From NCBI RefSeq assembly GCF_051660365.1, contig NZ_JBOZXB010000001.1, positions 1,191,371-1,223,370 of the forward strand: a stretch of 32,000 bases of DNA. The letters run 5' to 3'. The notes beneath the pieces were generated by a model, which ran no database searches, was not told the DNA's origin, and saw only the letters and a list, made by a program, of their open reading frames with translations. How positions within the stretch are numbered: position 1 is the stretch's first letter; every line of letters begins with the position of its first letter. The stretch is from Oleiharenicola lentus (GTDB taxonomy: Bacteria; Verrucomicrobiota; Verrucomicrobiia; Opitutales; Opitutaceae). Below are positions 1 through 17,579 of the stretch, one piece after another. Position numbers and translations under genes: made by a program.

Positions 1-348
1 AAAAATCTCAGCGACGTAAAAGTCACCGATCTCACCGCGCAAACGTTCGCGGTTTTTATCGTGAGCACATGGGGCGACGGCGAGCCGCCGGGCGACGCGC
101 AGGATTTCCAGGATCAATTGCTCGCCGCGAACGCGCCGCGTTTGCCGGAGTTGCGCTACGCCGTCTTCGGCCTCGGTGACCACTCCTACTCGGAATACAA
201 CGCTTTCGCCCGCCGCCTCGACGAACGCCTCGCCGCACTCGGTGCGCAACGCCAGCACGAGCGCGCCGAAGCCGATGTGCAATTCGAAGCGCCCTACGAA
301 GCGTGGGAGCCAGCCGTGCTCACCGCCGCCAAATCCGCCGCGGCCTGA
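1..348 (+). CDS. Flavodoxin-like FMN-binding domain protein, C-terminal part (5' end lies outside the window)
   Basis: Frame 1 is open from base 1 (KNLSDVKVTDLTAQTFAVFIVSTWGDGEPP...). The STWGDGEPP and FGLGDHSY motifs are typical of CysJ/MioC-type flavodoxin domains. Stop codon at 346-348. Confidence 0.7.
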   Translation, partial: KNLSDVKVTDLTAQTFAVFIVSTWGDGEPPGDAQDFQDQLLAANAPRLPELRYAVFGLGDHSYSEYNAFARRLDERLAALGAQRQHERAEADVQFEAPYEAWEPAVLTAAKSAAA

Positions 349-380
349 ACGCGCGCAATTTTTCATCAGGAAGAATTTTA

Positions 381-599
381 ATGTTCCACCGCCCGCTCAC
401 GCTCTCACTGCAACTGCCGCCCGCAACGCTTCGCGAGCAGCGCTTGAGCGTGCGCGTGGTGATCGCCGGGATTTTTTGCGGATTCGCTTTCATGCTCCTG
501 CTCGCGGCGCTCGCCGGTGCGCAGCCCGCGCGCAGCACCGTGAGTTCGCCGGCGTCACCGAGGCACGCCGCCCACTCCTCTTCATTTTCCAAACCGTGA
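381..599 (+). CDS. Hypothetical small membrane/exported protein (72 aa)
   Basis: ATG at 381 is preceded by AGGAAG 7 nt upstream. Third codon positions are strongly G/C-biased like real genes here. One hydrophobic segment (VVIAGIFCGFAFMLLLAALAGA). No family recognised. Confidence 0.3.
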   Translation: MFHRPLTLSLQLPPATLREQRLSVRVVIAGIFCGFAFMLLLAALAGAQPARSTVSSPASPRHAAHSSSFSKP

Positions 600-763
600 C
601 TCGTCCCCGACATTTTTTGTCGGGCCGCTTCCGGTTCGACTCTCTCACCCGCGTCGCTGACGCCGTATGCGCATGTCGTGGCTCGGAATCCACGTCATCG
701 ACGGCCCTGCGATGCGGGTGGGACTCTCTCTTTTAACGCGTTCGCCCTCTTTGTATCCTCCGC

Positions 764-1954
764 ATGAAACTGTTTAAGAGAATCCTGTTTTGGGTTCACC
801 TCGTCCTTGGCGTCGCCGGCGGCCTCGTCATCGCCATGCTCGCGCTCACCGGCGCGGCGATGGCCTTCGAGCCGCAAATTCTCGACTTGATCGAACCCCA
901 CGCGAACGCCGTGACGCTGATCGAGGGCGCGCCGCGCCTCACCGCGCAGCAGTTGCTCGACGGCGTAAAAGCAAAGTTCCCTGACAAAAGTCCTGGCGGC
1001 CTCGTGCTCTCCTCGGAACCGACGAAGCCGGTGCTGGTGCAAGTCGCCGGCGCGCACGCGGTGTCGGTTCACCCGCAGACCGGCGAAATCGTGAGCGAGC
1101 GCACGCCGTCGAATTTTTTCACAGTGATGCTCTTGCTCCACATTCGCCTGTCGTCGGGCGCCGTCGGCAACTGGATCGTCACGGTCAGCAATGTGTTTTT
1201 CATCCTGCTGTGCATCACCGGACTTTATCTCTGGTGGCCAAAGACGCTGCGCGCGATGAAGAGCGTCACGCGCTTCAACTTCAAATTGAAGGGCAAGGCG
1301 TTCCACTGGAACTTGCACAACGTCTCCGGTTTCTGGGCGCTCGCGGTGTTGTTCATTATTTCCGTCACGGGCCTCATGATGAGCTACCGTTGGGCGAGCG
1401 ATATTTTCTACACGGCTTCCGGCGCGCCGAAGCCCGAACCTGCGCCGGTCGTGAAACTCGCGGACGGCACGCCGCGTTATCCGCTCAACGACGCCGTCGC
1501 CCAAGCCGACGCCATCGCGCCCGGCTGGGAAACCACCGCGGTGCTTCCGCCCGGTCGCCGCAGCGGCGCTTACACGCTCATCATCCGCGAAGCCGGCCAC
1601 AGCGAGAACCAGCGCTCGCGCCTCTACCTGCACGGTGGCACCGGCGAAGTGCTGCGCTGGGATCAGTATAAAAACTACAGCCACGCCCGCAAACTCCGCA
1701 ACTACGTGCTGCCGTTGCATCAAGGCTCCATCGGTGGCGTGCCCGGACGCTTCATCGCGTTCGCCGCGTGCATCACCGCACTCACGCTCGTCATCACCGG
1801 CTACGTGCTCACGTGGAAACGTTTCGCCGCGTGGCGGACCAAACGCGCAATCGCTCGCGTAAAACCAAAAGCCCGCGCGCCGGAAATTTCCACCCCCGAC
1901 GAATTGCCCGCGCCTTCCGCGGCCTTCACCGCGTCAGCACCTACGACTCAATAA
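764..1954 (+). CDS. PepSY domain-containing transmembrane protein (PiuB/FoxB-like putative ferric-siderophore reductase)
   Basis: N-terminus (ILFWVHLVLGVAGGLVIAMLALTGAAMAF) and C-terminal helix (LPLHQGSIGGVPGRFIAFAACITALTLVITGYVL) match the PepSY-associated TM helix pattern. Sits 4 nt upstream of a TonB-dependent receptor. Confidence 0.85.
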   Translation: MKLFKRILFWVHLVLGVAGGLVIAMLALTGAAMAFEPQILDLIEPHANAVTLIEGAPRLTAQQLLDGVKAKFPDKSPGGLVLSSEPTKPVLVQVAGAHAVSVHPQTGEIVSERTPSNFFTVMLLLHIRLSSGAVGNWIVTVSNVFFILLCITGLYLWWPKTLRAMKSVTRFNFKLKGKAFHWNLHNVSGFWALAVLFIISVTGLMMSYRWASDIFYTASGAPKPEPAPVVKLADGTPRYPLNDAVAQADAIAPGWETTAVLPPGRRSGAYTLIIREAGHSENQRSRLYLHGGTGEVLRWDQYKNYSHARKLRNYVLPLHQGSIGGVPGRFIAFAACITALTLVITGYVLTWKRFAAWRTKRAIARVKPKARAPEISTPDELPAPSAAFTASAPTTQ

Positions 1955-1958
1955 TTTC

Positions 1959-4385
1959 ATGTTAACGTCACCTGCACTCACTGCCCGCACGCTTCTTGGT
2001 GTGCTGGCGCTCATCAACGCCCCGATCCTCTTCGCGCAAACCACGCCCGCCAAAGAAGAGGCTGAAGTCTTCACGCTCGATAAAATGATCGTCGAAGGGG
2101 AATCGAAAAAAATTTCCCAAGCTTACACGCCGATGAAATCCGGCGCCGCGCTGCTCGACACGCCGGCGTCCGTCAGCATCGCGACGAAGGAACTGCTCGA
2201 AGCGCAAGGCGCGACTTCGCTGCAAGACTCGATCCGCAACATCAGCGGCTTGATGCACGAGGGAAATAATTACGGCATCGGCGACCAACTCGCCATTCGC
2301 GGCCAGTCCGTTTCCTACACCTACGACGGCCTCGACGCCGGCTCGGGCGGTTCGGGCGGCGGCTCGGGCGCGACCGTGCGCTCGCTCACAAACGTCGAAC
2401 GCCTCGAAGTGCTCAAAGGCCCCGCGGGCACGCTCTACGGCATCGGCGCCGCGGGCGGCATTGTGAATCTCGTGGAGAAACGCCCGCAAGCGACCGCCGC
2501 GCGCAAATTCGAAACCTATCTCGGCCGCTGGAATACCTACGGCGCGCAACTCGATCTCACCGGCCCGCTCAGCGAAAAATTGAGCTACCGCGTGATCGCT
2601 TCGACGCGCGAAAGCGACGGCTACCGCAATTTCACGGAAGACCGCACGGAGCTTTATCCGTCGTTGATGTTTAAACCGAATCGCGACCACACGTTGCTGT
2701 TCACCGCCGCTTACATCGCGGACAAAGTGCAGGTCGATTCCAACGGCCACCCGGTGCGCATCTACGATATTCGCAGCACCGTGCCCGCGAACGTTCCCGC
2801 CGAGGACGCTACCCTGCCCAACATCCCGAACGGCCCCGGCGGCCTCCAACTCACCGACGCGCAACGCCAGCAACTCCTCGACAGTCTCGCCGCCGGCGAC
2901 GGCGGCCAGCCCTATGACCTCGGCGAAGCGAGTCTCATTTCTCCGCTCACGCGTCCGACCGAAGGCGAAGAGTTTCGCGTGAAATTCCGCCACGACTGGA
3001 CGCTCAGCGAAAACACCGCGTTCGCGCATTACGCTCAGTTCCGCTCCTACGAATCCGACTACGTCCGCACGACCGGCGCGTTCAATTATGTTTACTGGAA
3101 TCGCACCAATGTGATCAACGCCGTGCCGCGCGCGCCGCTCGTGATCAATGGCGTGCTGTATCCGTTCGCGCTACGCCGCACCGAGTATCGCAAATTGGAT
3201 TTCGCCGAGGACTCCGTGCAATATTTTGCCGAGGCGAAAAATCGTTTCGAATTTGCGAAGACGAAACACGAAGTGCTCGCGACGACCTACGGCGAATGGC
3301 GCGACTACAAAACGAAAGGCTGGAGCCTCTACGACGGCGACGACGCGCGCTCGGCCGCGAATCCCGTTCCCTACATTCTCGACATGCGAAACCCGAACTG
3401 GCCGACCGGTCGTTTCGAAGACTACGCGTTCGTGACGACCTCCGATTACACCAAAGACGTCACGGCTTACGGCGTCGGCCTGCAGGATGTCATCACGTTG
3501 CCGCACGACATCACCGTGCGCCTCGCGGGAGGTTGGAATCAGATCGATCAAGACTACGACAACAATTTCTTCACGGTCGGCGCCGACCCGATTCCCGTTT
3601 CGTCGAAAGACCAAGGTCTCCTCTACAACGCCGGCGTGAGCTGGCGCATGTTGCCGAACACCGCGCTCTTCGTTGCCGCTGCCCAAGGCCGCACCGCGCT
3701 CAGCGTGACGGGCTCTGTTGTCCTCACCAATCAACCGCCGGACAGCGAATCCGAAAATTATGAAGTCGGCGTAAAACAGGAATACCTCGGCGGCAAACTC
3801 GCGCTCTCGGCGGCGTATTTTGAAACCTCGCGCACCAACCTGCGTTACGCGAATCCGCTCTACGACAGCAACCCGTCGTCGCCGACTTATAACATTACCG
3901 TCGATCCTTTCCGCTACGACGGCAACGAGGAGACAAAAGGCGGCGAACTCGATCTCAACGTGAACATCACGCAGCGCTGGATGATCAATCTTAACGGCAC
4001 TTACCAGGACGCGCACACGCAGCAAAATCCCGGCCTGGGCACCGTCACCGGTTTGAAGAAAGGCGTGCCGCGCGTCTTCGCTTCGATCTGGGTGCAGCAC
4101 ACGCTCGCGCCCAAAGTTTTCGGCGGAAAACTGACGCTCGGCGGCGGCGTGCGCCACAACGGTCGCCGCACGATCAACGACACGTCCTTCGGCATCGCGC
4201 AGGCTTACGTGCCGCGTTACACGACGGTCGACGGCATCCTGCGCTTCGACAGCGCGAGCTTCTGGTCGGTGCAAGTGAACGCCAACAACCTCACCGACGA
4301 GCGCTACTATGAACTCGCGCAATTCCTCGGCGGCCGCCCCGGCGAACCGCTCAACGCCACGGTCACATTCACCGCGAAATTCTAA
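1959..4385 (+). CDS. TonB-dependent outer-membrane receptor (siderophore/metal type)
   Basis: Signal peptide, TonB-box-like EVFTLDKMIVEG, plug motif ERLEVLKGPAGTLYG, long beta-barrel region and a C-terminal aromatic residue (TFTAKF). Confidence 0.9.
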   Translation: MLTSPALTARTLLGVLALINAPILFAQTTPAKEEAEVFTLDKMIVEGESKKISQAYTPMKSGAALLDTPASVSIATKELLEAQGATSLQDSIRNISGLMHEGNNYGIGDQLAIRGQSVSYTYDGLDAGSGGSGGGSGATVRSLTNVERLEVLKGPAGTLYGIGAAGGIVNLVEKRPQATAARKFETYLGRWNTYGAQLDLTGPLSEKLSYRVIASTRESDGYRNFTEDRTELYPSLMFKPNRDHTLLFTAAYIADKVQVDSNGHPVRIYDIRSTVPANVPAEDATLPNIPNGPGGLQLTDAQRQQLLDSLAAGDGGQPYDLGEASLISPLTRPTEGEEFRVKFRHDWTLSENTAFAHYAQFRSYESDYVRTTGAFNYVYWNRTNVINAVPRAPLVINGVLYPFALRRTEYRKLDFAEDSVQYFAEAKNRFEFAKTKHEVLATTYGEWRDYKTKGWSLYDGDDARSAANPVPYILDMRNPNWPTGRFEDYAFVTTSDYTKDVTAYGVGLQDVITLPHDITVRLAGGWNQIDQDYDNNFFTVGADPIPVSSKDQGLLYNAGVSWRMLPNTALFVAAAQGRTALSVTGSVVLTNQPPDSESENYEVGVKQEYLGGKLALSAAYFETSRTNLRYANPLYDSNPSSPTYNITVDPFRYDGNEETKGGELDLNVNITQRWMINLNGTYQDAHTQQNPGLGTVTGLKKGVPRVFASIWVQHTLAPKVFGGKLTLGGGVRHNGRRTINDTSFGIAQAYVPRYTTVDGILRFDSASFWSVQVNANNLTDERYYELAQFLGGRPGEPLNATVTFTAKF

Positions 4386-4408
4386 TCACGCAATCCCTGC
4401 GACTCATC

Positions 4409-5095
4409 ATGAAAAAAAATTCGTTTTTCCGCCTCGCCGGCCTTGCGCTCGGCAGCTTGCTCGCGCTCGCGCCGTTCGCGCGGGCGCACTCTGTCTGGAT
4501 CGAAGACACGCCGGATCAAAAACTCGTCCTCCGGTTCGGCGAAGTCGGCGAGAAGTATGAGAAATCTCCCGGCTATCTCGATGAACTCATCCCGACCGCC
4601 GCGTGGACCGCTGACCAGGACGGCAAACTCAACGCGCTCGTGGTCGAAAAAAAATCCGATCACTACCTGCTCGGCAAAGCCACACCCGCGAAACCCACGC
4701 TCGCCGAAACGAATTTCTTCGTGATGCAGCGAGTAAAAAATCCGGGCATCTGGCCCAATATGAACGTGCGCTGGCATCCCGCTGGCGCCACGCCGCCGGT
4801 TGAACCCGCGCTCACGCTCGATCTGTTGCCCACCGGCAAGGCCGGGGAAATCCGCGTTTATTTCCGCGGCCAGCCGCTTGCGGGCGCGACCGTGAAAGTG
4901 CTCGGTCAAGGCGAGGAAGAAGGCAAAGAAGAGAAGCTCACCTCCGACGCTGAAGGCCGCATTCAGTTCACTCCGAAAAAATCCGGCCTCGTCGTCTTGA
5001 GCTGCAACCACCGCGAAAAAGCCCCCGGTTACGCGCGCGGCAAAGCCTACGAACTCGCCAGCTACACCGTCGCGCTCAGCTGGCGGCAGCCCTGA
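4409..5095 (+). CDS. DUF4198-family periplasmic protein (copy 1)
   Basis: Signal peptide ends ARA|HSVWIE, giving an HxxW start as in DUF4198. C-terminal Ig-like segment (GQPLAGATVKVLG...TSDAEGRIQF). Confidence 0.7.
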   Translation: MKKNSFFRLAGLALGSLLALAPFARAHSVWIEDTPDQKLVLRFGEVGEKYEKSPGYLDELIPTAAWTADQDGKLNALVVEKKSDHYLLGKATPAKPTLAETNFFVMQRVKNPGIWPNMNVRWHPAGATPPVEPALTLDLLPTGKAGEIRVYFRGQPLAGATVKVLGQGEEEGKEEKLTSDAEGRIQFTPKKSGLVVLSCNHREKAPGYARGKAYELASYTVALSWRQP

Positions 5096-5115
5096 CGTGA
5101 TCTCCGGCGATTGAA

Positions 5116-5805
5116 ATGACTCCCGCTCATTCTTCCTCCGCGACCGCCAAAAGTTCGCCTTTCGCTCCGCTCGCGCGCACCCCGAGTGCACGTCGGGCGT
5201 TTTGGACGAAACAGTTTTATCTCTGGCATTGGGTCAGCAGCGCCTTCGCGCTCGCCGCGATGCTGTTCTTCGCGGTCACGGGCATCACGCTCAACCACGC
5301 GGGCAGCTTCAGCGCCAAGCCGAGGGTGAAACAAACCCGTGAAACGCTGCCCGACGATCTGCGCAAAACCATCGCCGTCGCCGACCACGAAGCCGCCGAA
5401 ACCAAGCGCCCGCTGCCGGTCGAATTACGCCGCTGGCTCGACCGCAATCTCTCCGCCGATCCTGGCGCGCGCGTGGTCGAATGGAACGCCGATGAGATCT
5501 ACATCGATCTCCCGCGCCCCGGCGGCGACGGCTGGCTGACCATCGACCGCGCTTCCGGAGGGGTGCTCAAAGAAACCACCACGCGCGGCGCGATTTCCTG
5601 GCTGAACGATCTGCACAAAGGCCGGCACACCGGCACCGTGTGGATTTTGTTCATGGATTTCTTCTCCGTCGTGTCGGTGATTTTCTGCCTCACCGGCCTC
5701 GCGTTGCTGTTCGTCCACGCGCGCCGCCGCCCGATGACGTGGCCCGTCGTCGCCGCCGGACTGCTGCTGCCCGTGCTGCTCATCCTGTTTCTCATTCACC
5801 ATTAA
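5116..5805 (+). CDS. Short PepSY-like transmembrane protein (putative transmembrane electron-transfer component)
   Basis: 229 aa. Has the PepSY_TM-like helix FYLWHWVSSAFALAAMLFFAVTGITLNHAG and C-terminal LNDLHKGRHTG followed by two hydrophobic helices. Conserved His residues lie in or near the helices. Confidence 0.75.
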   Translation: MTPAHSSSATAKSSPFAPLARTPSARRAFWTKQFYLWHWVSSAFALAAMLFFAVTGITLNHAGSFSAKPRVKQTRETLPDDLRKTIAVADHEAAETKRPLPVELRRWLDRNLSADPGARVVEWNADEIYIDLPRPGGDGWLTIDRASGGVLKETTTRGAISWLNDLHKGRHTGTVWILFMDFFSVVSVIFCLTGLALLFVHARRRPMTWPVVAAGLLLPVLLILFLIHH

Positions 5806-5814
5806 TTTCAAAAT

Positions 5815-6327
5815 ATGAACGCAAAATCTCTCACGAACATCGCCGCCGGACTTGCCGGCACGGCCGCCGCCGCCTCGGCTGCGCAACTCACCGCGACCAT
5901 CGAGATTCCCCAGCTCAACGTCGCGGAATATCACCGCCCCTACGTCGCGCTCTGGCTCGAAGGCCCGGACAAAACCCACACCGACGTCGGCGTCTGGTAT
6001 GACGTCAAAATGAAGAACGACGAAGGCGAGACGTGGCTCAAGGACCTCCGCCAATGGTGGCGCAAATCCGGCCGCGAACTCGATCTCCCGATCGACGGCC
6101 TCAGCGGCCCGACGCGGCCGGTCGGCACGCATGAAGTCAAAATTCCCGCGACGCTTCTCAACACACTCGTCGATGGCGAATACGTCCTCGTCGTCGAAGC
6201 CGCGCGCGAAGTCGGCGACCGCGAACTCGTGCGCGTGCCTTTCAAATGGTCGAAGTCCGGCCAGGTCGACACCGCCGTCCGCGGCCAAAAAGAACTCGGT
6301 AACATCACCCTCCGCTCCTCCCACTGA
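5815..6327 (+). CDS. DUF2271-family exported protein, predicted ApbE flavinylation substrate
   Basis: Signal peptide (AAASA|AQ). EYHRPYVALWLEG is the hallmark DUF2271 start. Contains DGLSGPT, which resembles the Dxx[ST]GA[ST] flavinylation motif. Confidence 0.75.
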   Translation: MNAKSLTNIAAGLAGTAAAASAAQLTATIEIPQLNVAEYHRPYVALWLEGPDKTHTDVGVWYDVKMKNDEGETWLKDLRQWWRKSGRELDLPIDGLSGPTRPVGTHEVKIPATLLNTLVDGEYVLVVEAAREVGDRELVRVPFKWSKSGQVDTAVRGQKELGNITLRSSH

Positions 6328-6339
6328 TTTTCCCAACCT

Positions 6340-7260
6340 ATGAACACCCTTCATCTCCTCACCCTCGGCGCCGCCCTTCTCGTCGGCGTTTCTTCCGCCC
6401 ATGCGCATCGCGTGTGGATTCTCCCCGCCGTCACCGTCCACTCGGGCGCCGACCAGTGGGTTTCGTTCGAAGCCGCGGTTTCGAATAATTTGTTTTTCCC
6501 GAATCATCGGCCCGTGCAACTCGCGTCGATCGAAGTGAAAGGCCCGGACGGCGCGCCCGTTGAAATCGCCAATGCCACGGCGGGCGAAATCCGGAGTTCG
6601 TTCGAACTGCATCTCCAAAAACAAGGCACCTACGTCGTGTCGCTGAAACCAAGCCAGGGACGTCGCCCGATGGGCGGCGGCACACCCGCCGGTCCCGGCG
6701 CTCCCGCCAACGGCAATGTGCCCGCGCAAAAATCCGGCGGCCCGGGAGCCGGCGGCCAAGGCGGCCTCACCGGCACTTACGAAGAAAACGGCAAAACCGA
6801 ACGCTGGCGCGGCACGCCGGAAACGCTGGTCTCCGAAGGCGTCACGAAAAAACCGAATTTTAAACTTCGCGAAAGCGGCGGTCGCAAAGTCGTGACTTTC
6901 GTCACGCTCGGCAAACCGACAACCGACGTGCTCAAGCCCGAAGGCAAAGGGCTCGAAATCGACTACGTCACGCACCCGAACGATCTTTTCGCCGGCGAGC
7001 CCGCGACGTTCCGCTTCCTCATCGATGGCAAGCCCGCCGCCAACGCCGAAGTCACCGTCGTGCGCGGCGACGATCGTTATCGCAACGAAGCCGGCGACGT
7101 CACCTTGCGCGCCGACGCCGAGGGAATCGTAAAAATCGAGTGGCCCGTGCCGGGACGCTACTGGCTCGAAGCCACCGCGACCGCCGCCGGCACGTTGCAC
7201 GGCGCACCCTCCGAAAAATCGTTCACCTACATCGCAACCTACGAAGTGCTGCCGCAGTAA
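6340..7260 (+). CDS. DUF4198-family periplasmic protein (copy 2, with Gly/Pro-rich insertion)
   Basis: Signal peptide ends AHA|HRVWILP. C-terminal Ig-like segment (GKPAANAEVTVVRGD...ADAEGIVKIEW). Paralogous in layout to 4409-5095. Confidence 0.75.
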   Translation: MNTLHLLTLGAALLVGVSSAHAHRVWILPAVTVHSGADQWVSFEAAVSNNLFFPNHRPVQLASIEVKGPDGAPVEIANATAGEIRSSFELHLQKQGTYVVSLKPSQGRRPMGGGTPAGPGAPANGNVPAQKSGGPGAGGQGGLTGTYEENGKTERWRGTPETLVSEGVTKKPNFKLRESGGRKVVTFVTLGKPTTDVLKPEGKGLEIDYVTHPNDLFAGEPATFRFLIDGKPAANAEVTVVRGDDRYRNEAGDVTLRADAEGIVKIEWPVPGRYWLEATATAAGTLHGAPSEKSFTYIATYEVLPQ

Positions 7261-7295
7261 ACGCCAGTCACTCAACCGCAGCCACCACCCAGGAA

Positions 7296-7322
7296 ATGAC
7301 ACGTAATACGTGTCATGTTTTT
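7296..7322 (+). terminator. Hairpin plus T-run after DUF4198 copy 2
   Basis: ATGACACGTA-A-TACGTGTCAT is a near-perfect palindrome at 7296-7316, followed by G and TTTTT at 7318-7322. Confidence 0.5.
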
Positions 7323-7341
7323 CGGCTCACTTTTTTAAAGC

Positions 7342-8337
7342 ATGTCTCGCCGCGTTTTGATTCCTCCCTCGCTTCCCCGTTCGCTGCCCATCGGCGGCGG
7401 AAATTTGGCGCGCGCGATTTGGGATTTTAGCGGCGCGACGATGGGCACGTATTGGAAAGCGCGCGTGGTGGAGTGCACCACACTCGCGCGCCCGGACGCT
7501 AAAAAAATCATCACGCATGCACTCGGCCTCGTCGTGGCGCGCATGAGTCCGTGGGAAACAGACTCCGACCTCGGACGTTACCGCGCGGCGCCACGGGACT
7601 CGTGGGTGTCAATCAGCACAGAGACATTCGTCGTGCTTTCACGCGCGCTCGAAGTCGCCGCGCTCACCGAAGGACGCTACGATCCGACTATCGGCCGGCT
7701 CACGGATGCGCTCGGCTTTGGCCCGAGCGGCAAGGAGCACGTGGTCGCGCTGGATTCATCCGTCGCGCAAATCGCACGCACTCACTCCGGCTACGCGCGC
7801 GTCACACTCGATACGACGCGATGCGCGGTGTTTCAACCCGGCGGCATGGAACTGGATTTGTGTTCGATTGCGAAAGGTTACGCCGTGGATCTCGCGATCG
7901 AAAAGCTGCGCACCGCCGGCGTGGAAAGTTGTTTCGTCGAAATCGGCGGCGAAGCGCGCGGCGTCGGTTGCAAACCCGACGGCCAGCCGTGGTGGTGTTT
8001 AATCGAACCGCCGCCGATCGCGGGCCACGCGTTGACGTCGATCGTTGCCGCCGCGTGCGATCTAGCACTCGCGACGTCGGGCAACTCGTTGCGCCCGCAC
8101 ATCGTTAATCCGCGCGCCGACGAATCGATCGAGCCGACGCTCGAAAGCGTCACGGTGCTCGCGCCGACTTGCATGGAAGCCGACGTGTGGGCCACCGCGC
8201 TATTCGTGCTCGGCGCGGAAGCCGGCGCGACGTTCGCGCAGACGCACGGACTCGCGGCGATGTTCGTGGAAAATCTTCCGGCACACGGGCACCGCGAACG
8301 CTGGTCGCCCCAGTTCGCAGCCTTTCTCGCTGAATAA
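7342..8337 (+). CDS. apbE: FAD:protein FMN transferase (ApbE family)
   Basis: GATMGTYWKARVV start motif, DPTIG, CSIAKGYAVD and ATSGN segments are typical of ApbE. An in-frame TAA two codons upstream of the ATG fixes the earliest possible start. Confidence 0.85.
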   Translation: MSRRVLIPPSLPRSLPIGGGNLARAIWDFSGATMGTYWKARVVECTTLARPDAKKIITHALGLVVARMSPWETDSDLGRYRAAPRDSWVSISTETFVVLSRALEVAALTEGRYDPTIGRLTDALGFGPSGKEHVVALDSSVAQIARTHSGYARVTLDTTRCAVFQPGGMELDLCSIAKGYAVDLAIEKLRTAGVESCFVEIGGEARGVGCKPDGQPWWCLIEPPPIAGHALTSIVAAACDLALATSGNSLRPHIVNPRADESIEPTLESVTVLAPTCMEADVWATALFVLGAEAGATFAQTHGLAAMFVENLPAHGHRERWSPQFAAFLAE

Positions 8338-8361
8338 CCCTTTTCCATTTTTCTTTAACTC

Positions 8362-9570
8362 ATGAAAATCGCCTCCGTTCTCACGCTCTGCGCGGCCGCC
8401 GCATTTGCGGCAGGTTGCCAACACACGTCCACGCCGCCGACTCCGCCCGCGACTCCCGCCCCGGTTGCGGCGGTCGAAACACCGGCCGCGCCAGCAGCAA
8501 CTCCCGCGAAACCCGCCGTCGCTCCCGCGCCCGAAAACGCCACGTCGTATCTGTTCGGTTGGGGCGATGTCCCGACGAAAATCGCAAATCCGCGCGGCGG
8601 TTCTTCGCGCGGCGCGCCCGTGACGCTCGCGCCGGATCGCGCGTTACCGCTCGCGGAAGTCGCGAACGCGCGCGATGCGTTTGCCAAGGATCGCGCGGCG
8701 ATCCTCGCGCTCGCGGGCGACTACAAAGTGACCTTCCACTTTATGGAAACCGTCGGGCTCACGGAAAAATATTCACCGAAAGCGCCGTATCATTCGTGGG
8801 CGACCGAGCAGGTGCGCGTGCTCGCCGACACCGGGAAGTTGATCAGCCTGCAACACACGCTCGTGATGTTCATGAAGAAAGACGATGGCACGATTTCCGA
8901 GCCGATGGTGATGAAGCATTGGCGTCAGGATTGGATTTACGAAGACACCGACCTGCACACGTTCCGCGGACAAAACACGTGGGCGCGCAAAACGCTCACC
9001 GCCGACGAAGCGCGCGGCACGTGGTCGCAAGCGGTGTTCCAAGTCGACGACTCGCCGCGTTACGAAGCGTTCGGCCCATGGACGCACAACGGCAATGTTT
9101 CGCAATGGACCGGCTCGCGCGAATTCCGGCCGTTGCCGCGGCGCGAACACACGACGCGCAAAGATTACGACGTGATGGAGGGCGTGCACCGCATCGTGCT
9201 CACGCCGACCGGCTGGCTGCACGAGCAACAAAATTGGAAACGCGTTTCCGGCGACACGAGCGTGGCCCCGACTTACGTGGCGCAAGAACTCGGCCTTGAT
9301 CGCTACGATCGCATCACTGCGCCGAGCCTCGCGGCGGCGGACAAGTATTTCGAAAAGAGCGGCGCTTACTGGACACTCGTGCGCAAAGTCTGGGCGGAGG
9401 AATTCACCCGGCGCGACCGCTTCGTTTTCCTCGCCCGCAAAAATGGCCAGAGCAGCTTCGAAGCGCCCTTTGCTTACGCCGAAAAACTCGAAAAGGGAGA
9501 ACCCTTCAATGCCGTTGAAGCGGAACAACATGCCCGCGCCAGCATCGAAGCTTTTATCGAGCAAAAGTAA
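8362..9570 (+). CDS. Uncharacterised lipoprotein with Pro/Ala-rich linker
   Basis: Lipobox LCAAAAFAAGC, then a TPPTPPATPAPVAAVETPAAPAATPAKPAVAPAP linker and a Trp-rich globular domain of about 320 aa. It may correspond to a DUF family (DUF6607-like, from memory), which I could not verify. Confidence 0.7.
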   Translation: MKIASVLTLCAAAAFAAGCQHTSTPPTPPATPAPVAAVETPAAPAATPAKPAVAPAPENATSYLFGWGDVPTKIANPRGGSSRGAPVTLAPDRALPLAEVANARDAFAKDRAAILALAGDYKVTFHFMETVGLTEKYSPKAPYHSWATEQVRVLADTGKLISLQHTLVMFMKKDDGTISEPMVMKHWRQDWIYEDTDLHTFRGQNTWARKTLTADEARGTWSQAVFQVDDSPRYEAFGPWTHNGNVSQWTGSREFRPLPRREHTTRKDYDVMEGVHRIVLTPTGWLHEQQNWKRVSGDTSVAPTYVAQELGLDRYDRITAPSLAAADKYFEKSGAYWTLVRKVWAEEFTRRDRFVFLARKNGQSSFEAPFAYAEKLEKGEPFNAVEAEQHARASIEAFIEQK

Positions 9571-9631
9571 TCTTAATTTCGCCCAACCAACAGTTGCCAA
9601 ACCCACCTCAACCACTACGTTCCCTCCAGCC

Positions 9632-10111
9632 ATGAAAACCCTCTCTTCCGCCAAAGTTAAAACGAGCCCGGTCGTCGCCGGTCTGAACCTTTTGCTGGCC
9701 GACTCTTACGCGCTCATGGCGCTCTCGCACCACGCCCACTGGAATGTCGAAGGCCAGGACTTCTTCGCGCTCCATACCGCTTTCCAGACGCACTACGAAA
9801 ACCTGTTCGAAGCCATCGATGAAATCGCCGAACGCACCCGCGCACTCGACGCGTATTCGAACGGCGGCCTCAAGGCCCTCGCCAAGGAATCCGGCATCGA
9901 AGAATTCCCGACCGGCTCCGTCGCCGCGAAGGATTACGTCGCCGGCTTGGTTGTCGCTCACGAAAAGACCCTCGCCGATGCCGTCGCCGTCCGTGACACC
10001 GCCGGCGCCGCGAACGATCTTGAGACGCAAGACCTCGTCATCGGTCGCATTCAATGGCACGAAAAGACGCTGTGGATGCTCCGCAGCTACTTGAAGCCCT
10101 CGCACGCCTAA
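9632..10111 (+). CDS. dps: Dps family DNA-protecting/iron-storage protein
   Basis: LNLLLADSYALMALSHHAHWNVEGQDFFALHTAFQTHYE...DEIAERTRAL is a classic Dps ferroxidase-site region. Start chosen at the in-frame ATG 9632, because the longer ORF from 9296 overlaps the lipoprotein gene. Confidence 0.9.
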   Translation: MKTLSSAKVKTSPVVAGLNLLLADSYALMALSHHAHWNVEGQDFFALHTAFQTHYENLFEAIDEIAERTRALDAYSNGGLKALAKESGIEEFPTGSVAAKDYVAGLVVAHEKTLADAVAVRDTAGAANDLETQDLVIGRIQWHEKTLWMLRSYLKPSHA

Positions 10112-10121
10112 CCTTTCCAAC

Positions 10122-10153
10122 GATGCGCCAGTCTTACCGCTGGCGCATTTCTT
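10122..10153 (+). terminator. Intrinsic terminator after dps
   Basis: Stem ATGCGCCAG (10123-10131) pairs with CTGGCGCAT (10140-10148) around an 8-nt loop, followed by TTCTT. Confidence 0.6.
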
Positions 10154-10190
10154 GAGATCCTTATTGAGACTGAGTTTTAATCCCATTCGC

Positions 10191-10655
10191 ATGAGCCACC
10201 TTACGTTAGCCCCTGTTGAGACGACGATCACCCCGGTTCGCACCGTCGTTTCCTGCCCGCTTAATCACGGTGTCGCCACGCTGGACCACTTGCTCGCGGA
10301 GCTGATGGGGGACGCCGATTCGGCGGCGTTTGATGCCGCGCTGGATTTGCGCTGGCTGCTCGCCCACTCCGACGATGCGAATGCGATGGTCAGTGAGTTT
10401 TTCCGCCTGCGCGCGTTGATTGAAGAGCGTCACTACCTCGCCTGTTTCCGCCTGCGTCGCTGGCTTGAAAGCCAGCTCGTCGCGTGGGTTTCCGAGACGC
10501 GTCACTCTCCCGCCGTCTGCACGGAATTGAAGCTCGCCGGTTGCGTCGAGTCCGTCCGCGCCAGCTGTATCCGCCTTGCCCTCGAAGGTGCGCCCACGAC
10601 GCCGTGGACACGCGTGCGTTTCGCGTTCAGCCGCACGGCGGCGATTGGCGCTTAA
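10191..10655 (+). CDS. Hypothetical protein (orphan, 154 aa); could instead be part of a long leader
   Basis: Open frame with G/C-biased third positions. No signal peptide, no recognisable motif and no obvious RBS. The opposite-strand ORF looks like a shadow. Confidence 0.35.
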   Translation: MSHLTLAPVETTITPVRTVVSCPLNHGVATLDHLLAELMGDADSAAFDAALDLRWLLAHSDDANAMVSEFFRLRALIEERHYLACFRLRRWLESQLVAWVSETRHSPAVCTELKLAGCVESVRASCIRLALEGAPTTPWTRVRFAFSRTAAIGA

Positions 10656-10663
10656 CTTTTTTC

Positions 10664-10679
10664 CGCGAAATTCTTCGCG
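10664..10679. promoter_or_regulatory. 6-4-6 inverted repeat CGCGAA-ATTC-TTCGCG upstream of the second TonB receptor
   Basis: Perfect 6-nt arms read directly from the sequence. Function (operator or small hairpin) unknown. Confidence 0.3.
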
Positions 10680-10681
10680 AA

Positions 10682-10719
10682 CGACCCTGCTCTCCACCTG
10701 AGACAGGGTCGCATTTTTT
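10682..10719 (+). terminator. Terminator-like hairpin plus T6 run ending 5 nt before the receptor ATG
   Basis: CGACCCTG(C)TCT at 10682-10693 pairs with AGACAGGGTCG at 10701-10711 (11 bp, one bulge, 7-nt loop), followed by CATTTTTTA. Confidence 0.5.
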
Positions 10720-10724
10720 ACACC

Positions 10725-12893
10725 ATGCAATCCGTAGTTAAATCGTCACTGCGCCTCGGCGCTCTCTTGTTCGTCACGCCCCTGCTGTGGGCTCAAACCG
10801 CTCAGACCCCGAGCAACTCCTCGTCGACGACCGACGACGGCGTCGTGCGCCTCGACGATTTCAAGGTCACCGATCAACGTGACGCCTACAAAGGCAACAC
10901 CTCCATCACCGGCATGAAAACCGACACGCCGCTCATCGACGTGCCGGCACCAATTCAAGTCATTACGAAAGAGCTGATCGAAGACGTCGGCGCGCTCGAC
11001 ATCACCGATCTCTATCAGTTCATGGGCAGCGTCACCGAATTTTCCTACGGCGGCGTGAGCGCGCGCGGTTTCCGTCAGGAGCAGACGCGTTACAACGGCA
11101 TCGCCGGCAGTCCGTTCAATGACTTCGGCATCCTCACGCTCAATAACGTCGAACAAGTCGAAGTCCTCAAAGGCCCCGTCGGCCTCCTCTATGGCGACAA
11201 CGAACCGGGCGGCCTCATCAACATCGTCACCGCAAAACCCAAAGCCAAATTCGGCGGCTCGGTGAACGCGCGCGTCGGTAGCTACGACCTCCGTGGCGGC
11301 AGCTTCTCCGTCACCGGCCCCATCGATCAGAAGAAACGTTTTCTCTATCTCGTCAGCGCGAGCTACAACGAAAAGGAAAGCTTCCGTAACAACTACGGCC
11401 AGGAAGCGCTCAATCTCGTCGGCTCGCTCACGTGGGTCATTTCCGAAGCCACCCGTCTCAACGTCGAAGTCGAAGACGTAACCAACAAACAACCCGGTGC
11501 CCGCATCCGCGGCGTGCCGTTCCTCGCGTTCAGCGCGCCCGGCGTGCTCGCGCCGACCGGCACCAAAGGCGGTTCGTTTATCGCGCCGATCAGCCACTCG
11601 CCGACCGAGCCGACTGATTTCCAAAATCTTTTCACGACAATCTATAGCGCGCGACTCGATCACGCGTTCTCGAGCAATCTACGCCTGAATGCATTCGTTC
11701 GCTGGTATGAAAGCGAATCCGAGCAAGCTTACCACGAAGGCAACTTGATGGTCGGCCCGGCCTTCGTCGAACAACTGCGCGAATTCCGCCACCAGCTCCG
11801 CCTGAACGACGAACTCGCGTGGGCCGCCAACGTGATCGGCGATTACGAAATCGCAAAAACCACGCACAAAATTCTCGCCGGCGTGGACTACTCGAGTGTG
11901 AACCGCGTATTCTACTCCGTCGCCGTCGCCCAAGCCAGCGTCGCGCGCATCAACGTCCTTAATCCTGTTTACGGCGTCAGCGGCCTCACCGACGACTCGG
12001 TGCCATTCGGCGCCGCCGTGCCCAACGACACCGACAAGATCCGCACCGGCTATTACGTGCAGGATCAAATTTCGTTCGGCGAAAAATGGCGCCTCGTTCT
12101 CGGTGCACGTTATGAAGATTTCGAAGACACCCGTTTCCGCCCGACCACCGATTCGTTTTCCGATAGTGTCTTCACCTACCGCGGCGCCGTCGGCTACAAG
12201 ATTCAACCCAACGCGCTCGCCTACTACAGCTATGCGATGGGGTTGAAGCCGCAAACGCTCGGCAGCGAAGACCAGAACGGCCCCTTCCCTCCACAGGAAA
12301 GCCTGTCGCACGAAGCCGGCGTCAAATGGGACATTTTGCAAAATCGCCTCAGCCTCACCGCATCGATCTACGACATCACCAAGACCAACATCCTTGAACG
12401 CGATCCGACGCCCGGCGCCCCGACCAACTGGCTCGCGCCCATCGGCGAAGTTACCAGCCGTGGCTTCGAATTCGATGCGAGCGGCCAGCTCACGAAATCG
12501 TGGAATCTCTCTGCCAACTACGCCTACAACGACACCAAGGTCACCGACGCCGGCACGTTCGGCACCGCCGTCGGCAGTCGTTTCCCGAATGCTCCGCGCC
12601 ACAAATTCGGCGTGTGGACGCGCCATAATTTCCTGAAGGACGACAAACTCGGCGTCGCCGTCGGCGTGAATTACGTCGGCGCGCGCGAGAACTTCACCGG
12701 CGTGCAGGATTTCCCCGCCGCTTCCTACACGATTTATAATGCCGCGCTTTACTACCGCTGGAACCAGGTTCGCTTCGCCCTCAAGTGCGAGAATATCGCC
12801 GACAAGGTGTATTCACGCAGCGTGCTCGGCGGCGAAGGCCACTTCCCGGGCACGCCGAGAAATTACACTTTCACGACGTCCTACAGCTTCTAA
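10725..12893 (+). CDS. TonB-dependent siderophore receptor
   Basis: Signal peptide, TonB-box-like VVRLDDFKVT, plug motifs (VEQVEVLKGPVGLLYG, GGLINIVTAKP), FhuE/FhuA-like barrel, C-terminal TTSYSF. Confidence 0.9.
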   Translation: MQSVVKSSLRLGALLFVTPLLWAQTAQTPSNSSSTTDDGVVRLDDFKVTDQRDAYKGNTSITGMKTDTPLIDVPAPIQVITKELIEDVGALDITDLYQFMGSVTEFSYGGVSARGFRQEQTRYNGIAGSPFNDFGILTLNNVEQVEVLKGPVGLLYGDNEPGGLINIVTAKPKAKFGGSVNARVGSYDLRGGSFSVTGPIDQKKRFLYLVSASYNEKESFRNNYGQEALNLVGSLTWVISEATRLNVEVEDVTNKQPGARIRGVPFLAFSAPGVLAPTGTKGGSFIAPISHSPTEPTDFQNLFTTIYSARLDHAFSSNLRLNAFVRWYESESEQAYHEGNLMVGPAFVEQLREFRHQLRLNDELAWAANVIGDYEIAKTTHKILAGVDYSSVNRVFYSVAVAQASVARINVLNPVYGVSGLTDDSVPFGAAVPNDTDKIRTGYYVQDQISFGEKWRLVLGARYEDFEDTRFRPTTDSFSDSVFTYRGAVGYKIQPNALAYYSYAMGLKPQTLGSEDQNGPFPPQESLSHEAGVKWDILQNRLSLTASIYDITKTNILERDPTPGAPTNWLAPIGEVTSRGFEFDASGQLTKSWNLSANYAYNDTKVTDAGTFGTAVGSRFPNAPRHKFGVWTRHNFLKDDKLGVAVGVNYVGARENFTGVQDFPAASYTIYNAALYYRWNQVRFALKCENIADKVYSRSVLGGEGHFPGTPRNYTFTTSYSF

Positions 12894-12901
12894 GGTTTTC
12901 C

Positions 12902-12930
12902 TTACGCCGCCTCGCGCGGCGTAATTTTTT
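12902..12930 (+). terminator. Terminator-like hairpin plus T6 run abutting the PepSY gene ATG
   Basis: TTACGCCGC (12902-12910) pairs with GCGGCGTAA (12916-12924) around a 5-nt loop, then TTTTTT at 12925-12930. The ATG is at 12932. Confidence 0.5.
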
Positions 12931-12931
12931 A

Positions 12932-14365
12932 ATGAAAACCAAAACGCTCTTTAACTGGCACCTCTGGCTCGGGTTGGTCACGGGCGTTTTCATGTTCATC
13001 ATCGGCGGCAGCGGCGCCGTCGCGGTTTTCATCGAGGAAATTGACTGGCTCGTGACGCCCGCGCTGCGCGCTTCCGCCAAACCCGGCCAGCCTCGCGCCG
13101 GCATCGACCGCATTGTTTCCACGGTGCGCACGACGTATCCCGGCGACCGGCTGACCACCCTGAATCTTTCTGAACGACCTTCGTTTGCGCACGTCGCGAA
13201 AGTGCAGTCGAAGGAGCGCGGCAACCTCGATGTGTTCATCGATCCCGTGACCGGAAAGATCAACGGCGACCGCGAATACTCGGGTGCCTACACGTCCACG
13301 CTGCGCAATTTCATCCGGCAACTTCACCTGCGTTTATTCATGGGCTTGTGGGGCCGTGTTTTCGTCGGCGTGTTCGGCGTGACGCTGGTGTTGTCATGCA
13401 TCACCGGATTGTGGATTTATCGCGGCTGGATTAAAAACCTCTTCCGCTTCCGCTGGAATTCCGCCGGAGCACGCGTGCGCTGGTCGGATTTACACAAACT
13501 CGTCGGCGTGTGGTCGCTGGCATTTAATATCCTCATCGGCGTCACCGGCGCGGTGTTTGGTTTCGAAAATCTGACCAACCAGATTCGCTCTAAATGGCTG
13601 CGCCCCGCGTCCACGGCGGAAGCCGCCGCGCAAAACCCGCGCGCCCGCGAACCGCGCCCAGCCGCACCCACCACGCCACCGCTTCCACTGGAAACGATCC
13701 TCGCGAAAGCCCACGCCGCATTTCCCGAACTCACCGTGCGCTCGATCTCGTTTCCCAATCAGGCCAACGGACCGATCGCCCTTCAAGGCGATGTGCCGAG
13801 CGCGCTCGTGCAGCAAAGCCATGTGCGTCGCGCAAATTCGATCACGCTCGATCCCTACACCGGTGAAGTGCGCCGACAAGTTGATGGTCGCGACGCCAGG
13901 GGCTGGAGCCGCCTCTACTCGAGTTTCGATCCGCTGCACTTCGGTTACTTTGGCGGCATCCCGACAAAAGTAATCTGGTTCGTGCTCGGACTCAGCCCCA
14001 GCGTGCTCGCCCTGAGCGGCACGTGGCTGTGGTGGCGGCGCACGCGCGCACACCGCACGCCGCCAAAAAAACTCCCCGCATCGACCCCTTCGCCGCACGT
14101 CAAATCCATCACGTGGATCGTCGCCGGCCTCACGCTCATCGGCGCGTATGTCCTCGTCTCACGCGCGCAAGGCAGTTGGGCCTTGTCTGGAAAAACCATC
14201 GAGTTCGGCCTCGCCAAACCCGTCGCGCTCGCGCTCGTCGCCTTTCCAGTTTCCGGATTCCTCCTGTGGCTGGCGCTCCGATCTCAGGCGCATCGTCTCA
14301 AATTTGCGGCTACCGCCACGCTCTGCAGTGCGTGGTATCTTTTGCTGGTCTCGCTCTTTCAGTGA
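12932..14365 (+). CDS. PepSY domain-containing transmembrane protein (FoxB/PiuB-like)
   Basis: LFNWHLWLGLVTGVFMFIIGGSGAVAVF start helix, FIRQLHLRLFMG and DPLHFGYFGGIPTKVIWFVLG motifs. Start set at ATG 12932, because the upstream ORF extension overlaps the receptor gene. Confidence 0.85.
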   Translation: MKTKTLFNWHLWLGLVTGVFMFIIGGSGAVAVFIEEIDWLVTPALRASAKPGQPRAGIDRIVSTVRTTYPGDRLTTLNLSERPSFAHVAKVQSKERGNLDVFIDPVTGKINGDREYSGAYTSTLRNFIRQLHLRLFMGLWGRVFVGVFGVTLVLSCITGLWIYRGWIKNLFRFRWNSAGARVRWSDLHKLVGVWSLAFNILIGVTGAVFGFENLTNQIRSKWLRPASTAEAAAQNPRAREPRPAAPTTPPLPLETILAKAHAAFPELTVRSISFPNQANGPIALQGDVPSALVQQSHVRRANSITLDPYTGEVRRQVDGRDARGWSRLYSSFDPLHFGYFGGIPTKVIWFVLGLSPSVLALSGTWLWWRRTRAHRTPPKKLPASTPSPHVKSITWIVAGLTLIGAYVLVSRAQGSWALSGKTIEFGLAKPVALALVAFPVSGFLLWLALRSQAHRLKFAATATLCSAWYLLLVSLFQ

Positions 14366-15603: not shown

Positions 15604-15738
15604 GCTGCGCCGCCCTCGATGAAGTGAATGTGTGCTCCCACCATTGCGCGGCCATAGAGCGATTTTCGTGCCGTTTGTCCACCTCCGCCATGGCTCCGCT
15701 CTTGCCCTTGTCATAATTCCCCGCCGGAATCGCGCGCA

Positions 15739-17311: not shown

Positions 17312-17579
17312 TACACCTGCAAACCATTGCAAAAAAATGGGGGGTTCACGCGCATTCAACGGGCCAGTCAGACACGCGCGAACCCCTTTTGGTCACCTTT
17401 CACACCCGTTGCCGGTTGCGAACTGCGAACCAAACAAAGCCACAACTCGTTCCGAATGCGGAGAAACCAAACCGCCTAAAAAAAGGTGTTTTCGCAAAAT
17501 CTTATATTTAATTTCAAAACCGCCCCAGCGCCGCGAAATAAATCGACTTAACTGCCCCCGTGCTTGGCATTGGCTTCGT

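Follow-up and report, generated by a model that had tools for sequence, protein, structure and literature searches.

How does a flavin-transfer enzyme come to lie within a run of iron-uptake genes, and which of its neighbors belong with it? These questions are raised by a 32,000-nucleotide (nt) stretch of the genome of Oleiharenicola lentus (a soil bacterium of the Opitutaceae, Verrucomicrobiota; assembly GCF_051660365.1, contig NZ_JBOZXB010000001.1, positions 1,191,371 to 1,223,370 of the forward strand), which we call the window. A preliminary description had taken seven successive genes there to be one system, in which the transferase ApbE attaches flavin mononucleotide (FMN) to an exported DUF2271 protein and a PepSY-like membrane protein supplies electrons for the reduction of iron in the periplasm. 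Its groundwork holds: the seven open reading frames (ORFs) all lie on the plus strand at the coordinates claimed (Table 1), they are tightly spaced except before apbE (intergenic gaps of 4, 23, 20, 9, 12, and 81 nt), and profile searches against Pfam uphold all seven family calls (PepSY_TM, TonB receptor, DUF4198, PepSY_TM_like_2, DUF2271, DUF4198, and ApbE), with no mismatch for either the DUF2271 or the ApbE product. The DUF2271, DUF4198a, and ApbE products match O. lentus proteins at 100% identity. The electron-transfer model for iron agrees with these families, with a published hypothesis, and with genetics in Caulobacter; its novelty, its module boundary, and its operon end do not stand, and its periplasmic flavinylation is at odds with an ApbE that shows no recognizable export signal.

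A conserved cassette of four genes

The unit that is conserved consists of four genes, encoding PepSY_TM_like_2, DUF2271, DUF4198, and ApbE (5116-8337). Our survey covered 80 species-representative loci that encode DUF2271, drawn from Verrucomicrobiota, Proteobacteria, and Acidobacteriota, with the window's own proteins as the reference for annotation; ApbE and CysJ-like genes were counted in the 61 loci whose downstream sequence reached at least 4.5 kb. A PepSY-like gene directly precedes DUF2271 in all 80 loci and DUF4198 follows it in 78. Further downstream, 37 of the 61 loci have ApbE and 38 a CysJ-like gene; 19 have both, and 56 have at least one of the two. Because this synteny of PepSY-like, DUF2271, DUF4198, and ApbE or CysJ-like genes runs through the 80 loci, we set the limits of the conserved unit at these four genes; conservation of the gene order, which the preliminary description had left to be checked, is borne out across 80 genomes, but for this smaller unit. 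The CysJ-like genes encode flavodoxin plus NAD_binding_1 reductases, and such a reductase is a plausible cytoplasmic electron donor in other versions of the cassette. None of the 10 Verrucomicrobial loci has one, versus 38 of 61 overall: proteobacterial versions usually add this NAD(P)H-dependent diflavin reductase as a cytoplasmic donor, and the Verrucomicrobial versions go without it. In 24 of 69 loci, the gene directly upstream, on the same strand, encodes a TonB receptor; at two loci (L003 and L004), the cassette has only unrelated genes around it.

These limits exclude the first of the two DUF4198 genes, DUF4198a, which had been counted as part of the module. Its product belongs to a short-form clade of 194 homologs, every named one of which comes from Verrucomicrobiota, and its weak Pfam match is upheld by structure, since an AlphaFold2 model (mean predicted local distance difference test score, pLDDT, 90.6) matches the only two DUF4198 proteins of solved structure, Zcp and Ni-bound IsDUF4198, in Foldseek with probability 1.0 and template-modeling (TM) scores of 0.61-0.66. 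In one other genome (loci L083 and L084), a flavodoxin, a TonB receptor, a PepSY_TM protein, DUF4198a, DUF6607, Dps, a 161-residue ORF, and another PepSY_TM protein follow one another, and the flavinylation genes are absent; at a further locus (L085), a DUF4198a homolog neighbors a TonB receptor, a flavodoxin, HemS/ChuX, and Fur. Because DUF4198a directly abuts DUF6607 and Dps in L083 and L084 without the cassette, we assign it to the Verrucomicrobial host island and not to the flavinylation cassette. To call the module welded onto an iron operon was a fair description, with the weld line misplaced by one gene. Nor does the operon end with apbE at 8337, as had been proposed, because the run continues into a gene for a RhuH-type lipoprotein with predicted heme binding (DUF6607) and then Dps. 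In O. lentus, DUF4198a and DUF6607 of a pre-existing iron island flank the cassette on either side. The closest relative (L002) likewise has the cassette directly before DUF6607 and Dps, with an esterase in place of DUF4198a; among the 80 surveyed loci, DUF6607 adjoins the cassette in just one. Recent horizontal acquisition of the cassette was considered and rejected because composition is unbroken around 5116-8337.

It is very probable that this locus belongs to the published class of PepSY-like flavinylation systems and is not a new system. The claim that it is under-described gives way to a catalog of 3220 such clusters compiled in 2021, of which 2833 contain DUF2271, 1500 a secreted DUF4198, and 231 a TonB receptor (Meheust 2021, PMC8238504). 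Clusters were recognized there by PF03929 or PF16357 within five genes of ApbE, DUF2271, DUF3570, or FMN_bind, with at least one target carrying a signal peptide (PMC8238504); in the window, PF16357 adjoins DUF2271, two genes from ApbE, and the N-terminus of DUF2271 is signal-like. The same study showed that DUF2271 of A. ursilacus is flavinylated by its cognate ApbE and proposed periplasmic iron reduction (PMC8238504). Furthermore, the Caulobacter ortholog CC3059-63 (CCNA_03155-03159) is under the direct control of Fur and strongly induced by iron limitation (PMC3751524), and mutants with transposons in these genes show lowered fitness in EDTA (ethylenediaminetetraacetic acid; PMC12004947). 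With the cataloged system and Caulobacter CC3059-CC3063, the window shares four core families in identical order, the acceptor threonine, an association with a TonB receptor, and an iron context. It differs in lacking the CysJ-like NAD(P)H diflavin reductase, in an acceptor site that reads SGPT and not SGAT, and in the insertion of the cassette into a Verrucomicrobial island, where DUF4198a and a RhuH-like gene are its neighbors.

The cassette proteins and a proposed electron path

Residue conservation among the surveyed cassettes is given over 78 sequences for DUF2271 and the PepSY-like protein and over 76 for the cassette's DUF4198 protein, DUF4198b. The PepSY-like protein has three predicted transmembrane helices with a positive-inside N-terminus, and its conserved histidines lie on both sides of the membrane, with His38 (77 of 78) and His201 (63 of 78) on the cytoplasmic side and His61 (66 of 78), His167 (78 of 78), and His228 (75 of 78) on the periplasmic side. 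By analogy, these positions are consistent with b-heme ligation as in FoxB; a structure search returned no solved relatives of this 229-residue protein.

In DUF2271, the motif DGLSGPT was located where it had been reported, at residues 94-100 (nt 6094-6114), and its acceptor threonine (D94-G-L-S-G-P-T100) is conserved in 77 of 78 sequences of an otherwise highly conserved protein. FMN is predicted to attach to Thr100. The N-terminus is Ala-rich and resembles a Sec-type signal, without a twin-arginine motif, and DUF2271 alone among the proteins of the island carries D-x-x-[ST]-[GSA]-[AP]-[ST] in an acceptor-site context. A different, cytoplasmic ApbE substrate within the island was sought and rejected for want of a plausible motif; the sequence D-R-I-T-A-P-S of DUF6607 fits a loose regular expression only. 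A profile search found no solved relatives of DUF2271.

Both DUF4198 proteins of the window appear to expose a histidine as the first residue of the mature chain. With cleavage sites placed by eye, processing of DUF4198b between AHA and H23 would leave His23 at the N-terminus (75 of 76), and processing of DUF4198a between ARA and H27 would leave His27 (invariant in 117 of 117). DUF4198b has further conserved histidines at positions 56 (73 of 76) and 212 (75 of 76), and His23, His56, and His212 likely form its metal site. Two members of the family have been characterized: Zcp of Neisseria gonorrhoeae is a periplasmic binder of divalent metal, namely Zn (PMC12663993), and IsDUF4198 of Ideonella sakaiensis binds Ni through an N-terminal histidine exposed by cleavage of the signal peptide (PMC12537917). 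The window proteins resemble Zcp (PDB 9MHI-9MHO) and IsDUF4198 (PDB 9GCB) in fold, as shown for DUF4198a, in periplasmic location, and in the histidine at the mature N-terminus. They differ in sequence, with an identity of 16-18%, in a context of iron and not of Zn or Ni, and in that the short-form clade of DUF4198a has named members from Verrucomicrobiota only. The three Zn-binding histidines of Zcp are not conserved in the window either: DUF4198b is related to Zcp (9MHI) only distantly, and when the Zn site H29/H31/H142 is compared by phmmer, H31 alone aligns with a histidine and H29 and H142 are replaced by Thr. Even the histidine aligned with H31, His34 of DUF4198b, is kept in just 1 of 76 sequences of the cassette clade. 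DUF4198b also contains a Gly/Pro-rich insertion of ~36 residues (residues ~105-145, nt 6640-6770) that is shorter in other Opitutaceae and absent from proteobacterial orthologs.

The ApbE protein has the expected fold, as its AlphaFold2 model (pLDDT 94.8) matches the P. stutzeri and V. cholerae enzymes (5MGY and 6NXI) with Foldseek TM-scores of 0.83-0.90. In a 70-sequence alignment, His253, AKG177-179, Asp183, Ser246, and Asp281 are invariant, and His253 would, judging by its position, be the equivalent of the catalytic His257 of V. cholerae ApbE.

Probably, if not securely, the cassette serves periplasmic ferric reduction by a stepwise mechanism. ApbE would move FMN from flavin adenine dinucleotide (FAD) onto Thr100 of DUF2271, a reaction that we infer for O. 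lentus, the enzyme and the site being recognized by homology. The PepSY-like protein, probably an oligomer that binds b-type hemes through the conserved histidines of both membrane faces, would then relay electrons to periplasmic FMN-DUF2271 from a donor in the cytoplasm or the membrane; candidate donors in the Verrucomicrobial versions are the nearby flavodoxin and the quinol pool. FMN-DUF2271 would in turn reduce Fe(III), free or chelated, that has been delivered by TonB receptors, a step in line with the genetics of the ortholog, and DUF4198b would use its N-terminal histidine site to capture or present the metal ion. We infer that the PepSY-like protein contains heme, that electrons flow in this direction, that Fe(III) or a ferri-chelate accepts them, and that DUF4198b handles iron.

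The wide gap between DUF4198b and apbE contains, as had been reported, a real hairpin and T-run, formed by a perfect 21-nt palindrome at 7296-7316 and the sequence GTTTTT. The hairpin has a folding free energy of -11.4 kcal/mol (z -3.7 versus shuffles) and matches nothing elsewhere in the window or in the shuffles. It may be either a weak intrinsic terminator or attenuator or a protein-binding site, and in the former case it could dampen read-through transcription of apbE, the rhuH-like gene, and dps. The closest relative, L002, has no such hairpin at the corresponding junction, which is 21 nt long there. Because it is not conserved there, it stands outside the core logic of the system, and a conserved regulatory element was rejected on the same ground and because the hairpin is unique in the window. 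A scan of positions 1-11000 for sigma-70-like promoters found none.

The surrounding iron, heme, and siderophore island

The first 16.5 kb of the window form a single island for iron, heme, and siderophore acquisition. With the upstream flank included, it runs from a heme receptor through a flavodoxin, a FoxB-like reductase, a TonB receptor, and DUF4198a to the cassette, and continues with the RhuH-like, putatively heme-binding lipoprotein, Dps, a siderophore receptor, and a second FoxB-like reductase. Counted together with the flank, the iron context consists of FoxB-like genes, three TonB receptors, a RhuH homolog, Dps, and an enterochelin-esterase-like gene. The flank 5' of the window was read on contig L082, where a TonB receptor whose scores exceed the NCBIfam heme/hemoglobin-family cutoffs is followed by a gene of 287 codons and then by the flavodoxin, a possible cytosolic electron carrier or iron-sparing substitute for ferredoxin. 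The gene between heme receptor and flavodoxin (L082 2782-3645) encodes a conserved, Cys-rich protein of 277-287 residues with no Pfam or NCBIfam match.

The gene pair at 764-4385 is a system separate from the flavinylated cassette. Its first product matches FoxB (PDB 7ABW; E 8.5e-12, residues 6-355) over the full length and is a putative di-heme ferri-siderophore reductase; from sequence position only, His12, His126, His185, and His319 fall at or before transmembrane helices. Matches of PepSY_TM proteins to ubiquitin were dismissed as spurious repeat matches. The receptor that follows is siderophore-receptor-like and scores under the subfamily cutoff (TIGR01783, 160.8 bits versus 223.5). A FoxB-like PepSY_TM protein with a TonB receptor is an established pair for ferri-siderophore utilization, as in HiuABC of Caulobacter (PMC13001220). 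Like FoxB of P. aeruginosa (7ABW) and HiuABC, the window has such a pair at 764-1954 and 1959-4385, and again at 10725-14365, with a small membrane ORF nearby; it differs in that the reductase precedes the receptor and the small ORF lies upstream and is not conserved in relatives. This ORF of 72 codons, called as a gene on L082, has no Pfam match and lacks a conserved counterpart in L083 and in L002. By analogy with HiuC, the partner of the FoxB-like HiuB in Caulobacter, it may encode a small membrane partner, which we regard as uncertain.

The gene directly after apbE, which the preliminary description had missed, encodes a DUF6607 protein that aligns with the hemophore RhuH (PDB 8XJC) over residues 88-387 (E 1.3e-55). 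Its His186 corresponds to the heme-iron ligand His96 of RhuH in an identical KHWRQDW context, and four of five propionate-binding residues are kept (Arg143, Tyr144, Arg170, and Gln198; Arg183 is replaced by Gly). We predict that the protein binds heme with His186 as the iron ligand. RhuH is a hemophore of Riemerella anatipestifer, and its family has been reported mainly from Weeksellaceae and Flavobacteriaceae (PMC11967795). The window protein is thus like RhuH over some 300 residues, in the His96 ligand, and in four propionate residues, and unlike it in the Gly at Arg183, in being a lipoprotein with a linker (a lipobox-like FAAGC followed by a Pro/Ala/Thr-rich segment of ~60 residues), and in its host, a free-living Verrucomicrobium outside the reported range. 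The gene is probably co-transcribed with apbE, and DUF6607 is followed by Dps in L002, L083, and L084 as well.

Beyond the Dps gene, a GC-rich inverted repeat at 10122-10148 (ATGCGCCAG...CTGGCGCAT) may mark where the transcription unit ends. A conserved ORF of 161-167 codons comes after Dps in three genomes (10152-10655 in the window, plus strand, 167 residues; L083 10592-11077) and has no Pfam or NCBIfam match. The second siderophore system, at 10725-14365 on the plus strand, pairs an FhuA/FoxA-like TonB receptor above the TIGR01783 cutoff with a PepSY_TM protein that has extra C-terminal transmembrane helices, and a convergent gene at 14764-16536 on the minus strand encodes a 590-residue protein whose esterase domain is weakly similar to enterochelin esterase. 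From 17337 to 32000, the window holds housekeeping genes unrelated to the island, which encode a POT-family peptide transporter, a tetratricopeptide-repeat protein, an FtsY-like signal-recognition-particle GTPase, an MgsA/RarA ATPase, a ComEC-like competence protein, an exonuclease III-family protein, a long ThyX-like ORF, and NADH-quinone oxidoreductase/Mrp antiporter subunits. Neither the Rfam nor the tRNA scan gave any match in the window.

Table 1. Features of the iron island in the O. lentus window, in genome order
Positions	Strand	Feature	Length and topology	Match or remark
1-348	+	Flavodoxin, stand-alone, 3' part	151 aa	Flavodoxin_1 1.1e-19; whole gene L082 3658-4113, 2.4e-33
381-599	+	Small ORF	72 aa, one predicted transmembrane helix (residues 26-44, Kyte-Doolittle 2.73)	Called as gene on L082
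764-1954	+	FoxB/HiuB-type PepSY_TM protein	396 aa, four transmembrane helices	PF03929 9.2e-57, positions 1-295 of 295
1959-4385	+	TonB-dependent outer-membrane receptor	808 aa	Plug 6.7e-21, barrel 1.3e-25
4409-5095	+	DUF4198a, short-form, periplasmic	228 aa	PF10670 2.8e-10, C-terminal part only
5116-5805	+	PepSY_TM_like_2, first cassette gene	229 aa, three transmembrane helices	PF16357 2.8e-69
5815-6327	+	DUF2271, predicted ApbE substrate, exported	170 aa	PF10029 6.5e-41
6340-7260	+	DUF4198b, full-length, periplasmic		PF10670 1.3e-44, full length
7296-7322	+	Perfect palindrome and T-run between DUF4198b and apbE	21 nt, 9-bp stem, 3-nt loop	
7342-8337	+	ApbE FAD:protein FMN transferase, last cassette gene		PF02424 3.3e-60, positions 1-266 of 266
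8362-9570	+	DUF6607 lipoprotein, RhuH homolog		PF20311 6.5e-69; 24 nt after apbE
9632-10111	+	Dps/ferritin-like iron storage protein, ends same-strand run		Pfam Ferritin 5.6e-19; NCBIfam Dps 6e-21, below cutoff

Weighing periplasmic ferric reduction

Several observations weigh against periplasmic ferric reduction by this cassette. To our knowledge, ferric reduction has never been demonstrated biochemically for any member of the module. The DUF4198 proteins that have been characterized take Zn or Ni and not iron, and a ferrous-iron importer (Feo, VIT1, or FTR1) is absent from the window. A scan for Fur boxes with the E. coli 19-mer consensus, which may differ from the host's, gave nothing beyond chance: 11 matches at 7 or fewer mismatches versus ~7 expected, none of them at a promoter. 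The last two points concern the acceptor motif and the enzyme that would act on it.

The acceptor motif, DGLSGPT, has Pro in place of Ala in the canonical motif D-x-x-[S/T]-G-A-[S/T], and a change of that Ala to Val in another substrate halves flavinylation (PMC12052999). The Pro-type site is a family trait, with SGPT in 78 and SSPT in 15 of the 120 closest homologs; in the 80 species representatives, SGAT occurs in 46, a Pro-type site in 23, and SGPT in 10. By raw counts, which ignore phylogeny and contig truncation, a cluster ApbE accompanies the Pro-type site in 19 of 23 loci, and the site is Ala-type in 22 of 22 CysJ-like loci without a cluster ApbE. Because Pro-type sites track the cluster ApbE and CysJ-only loci are Ala-type, the sequences hint that enzyme and acceptor site are co-adapted. 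In the literature, we found no test of flavinylation on a Pro-form DUF2271 site.

The ApbE itself lacks a recognizable export signal, judged by hydropathy and an AlphaFold2 model, and flavinylation in the periplasm had been assumed. Its N-terminus reads MSRRVLIPPSLPRSLPIGGGNLARAIWDFSGATMGT (beginning MSRRVLIPP), and the ORF cannot be extended upstream because an in-frame TAA lies directly 5' of the ATG. The maximum 10-residue Kyte-Doolittle hydropathy is 0.72, versus 2.3-2.6 in DUF4198a, DUF4198b, DUF6607, and the TonB receptor. The N-terminus is moreover conserved and modeled as ordered, with a mean pLDDT of 90 for residues 1-10 and a strand at residues 4-6; in contrast, the true signal peptide of DUF4198a is modeled as a helix with a pLDDT of 60-72. 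Most cluster ApbEs carry R-x-V-L-[IV]-P ~25 residues before GxTMGT, and P8 is invariant in the 70-sequence alignment. A signal peptide is lacking in 41 of 42 ApbEs of the surveyed cassettes, with a classic one in the Lysobacter locus L071 alone, and no genuine signal peptide was seen among the 120 closest ApbE homologs, two of which show a borderline stretch. The enzyme shares with the canonical periplasmic ApbEs of E. coli, V. cholerae, and P. stutzeri (PMC12052999) the fold, the full-length Pfam match, and the AKGY and His253 regions; it differs in having neither a lipoprotein nor a Sec signal and in an N-terminal R-R-V-L-I-P-P that is predicted to lie within the fold. Twin-arginine translocation of ApbE was considered and found unlikely, since the window sequence SRRV is replaced in relatives by NR, TR, RT, or RQ and the segment that follows is charged and Pro-rich. 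Extracytosolic flavinylation places both ApbE and its substrate outside the cytosol, and here the substrate is signal-like and the ApbE, by hydropathy and the structural model, signal-less. An ApbE apparently without an export signal and a DUF2271 apparently exported by Sec make an unexplained inconsistency, which we do not take for a demonstrated exception.

One way out of this inconsistency would be that flavinylation is cytoplasmic or non-classical: a signal-less ApbE might modify pre-DUF2271 before export or reach the periplasm by another path, or it might have a different task and a housekeeping exported ApbE do the work. We consider this unlikely. The absence of a signal peptide in 41 of 42 cluster ApbEs and the 120 closest homologs, their shared R-x-V-L-[IV]-P with its invariant P8, the ordered N-terminal strand, and the distribution of Pro-type sites (19 of 23 with a dedicated ApbE) and Ala-type sites (22 of 22 CysJ-like loci without one) would all fit it, and cytosolic ApbEs that serve cytosolic substrates do exist (PMC12052999). 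The conserved RRVLIPP segment might then stand in place of a signal peptide and DUF2271 mature by an undescribed route, flavinylated before or during export, a scheme we think doubtful; it is a similarly tentative idea that ApbE is exported or docked through RRVLIPP, for example via the PepSY-like protein. If the signal-less ApbEs are read in this manner, Pro-type sites with dedicated ApbEs could conceivably reflect a private specificity of enzyme and substrate, which is a long shot of the same order. Set against these ideas, Sec exports unfolded chains and export of a flavinylated preprotein has no known precedent, DUF2271 has no twin-arginine motif, a classic signal peptide is present in one cluster ApbE, that of L071, the enzyme of A. 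ursilacus is reported with its signal peptide truncated (PMC8238504), and the signal-less call rests on hydrophobicity and a model.

The substrate of the cassette is a separate matter, and here the neighbors of apbE might point to heme iron in place of siderophore or free ferric iron, with FMN-DUF2271 reducing heme or freeing iron handled by the RhuH-like lipoprotein and a heme receptor, and DUF4198 taking the metal. A RhuH homolog with a conserved heme ligand does begin 24 nt after apbE, the adjacency of cassette, DUF6607, and Dps is seen again in L002, a heme/hemoglobin-family TonB receptor lies just upstream of the window, and a DUF4198a-type gene stands beside HemS/ChuX and Fur in L085. 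However, DUF6607 adjoins the cassette in just 1 of 80 loci, and the DUF4198a-DUF6607-Dps island occurs without the cassette in L083 and L084 just as the cassette occurs alone in L003 and L004. Because each is found without the other, the association looks like local gene packing, and we judge a heme role improbable. A non-iron metal (Ni, Zn, Co, or Cu), bound by DUF4198 and with the redox state of the metal or its chelate adjusted by the flavoprotein, is suggested by the sole biochemically characterized DUF4198 proteins, which bind Zn (Zcp, PMC12663993) or Ni (IsDUF4198, PMC12537917), by the N-terminal histidine that ligates Ni in IsDUF4198 and is kept in both window copies, and by structural similarity in Foldseek. 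It is the least probable of these alternatives, and we give it very little weight: Ni and Zn do not change redox state under physiological conditions, which would make a dedicated electron chain pointless, the Caulobacter ortholog is under Fur (PMC3751524), the neighbors are iron, heme, and siderophore genes, and just one of the three Zn ligands of Zcp aligns in DUF4198b. Periplasmic reduction of ferric iron, as set out in the four steps above, is the reading we retain.

The points of interest in this locus are the corrected boundary, the RhuH-like gene that had been missed, and a signal-less ApbE clade with a conserved N-terminus. The cassette is among the most widespread bacterial iron-limitation modules still without biochemistry, and its Verrucomicrobial example offers a compact, probably co-transcribed set of partners, including a receptor, reductases, metal-binding proteins, a predicted heme-binding lipoprotein, and Dps. 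Our re-analysis sets the module at four genes and ties DUF4198 to new metal-binding structures, which leads to His23, His56, and His212 as candidate ligands, and it extends RhuH-type proteins, with predicted heme binding, to free-living Verrucomicrobiota. If confirmed, a dedicated ApbE that is not exported, paired with a substrate that is, would change our view of how periplasmic flavoproteins mature.

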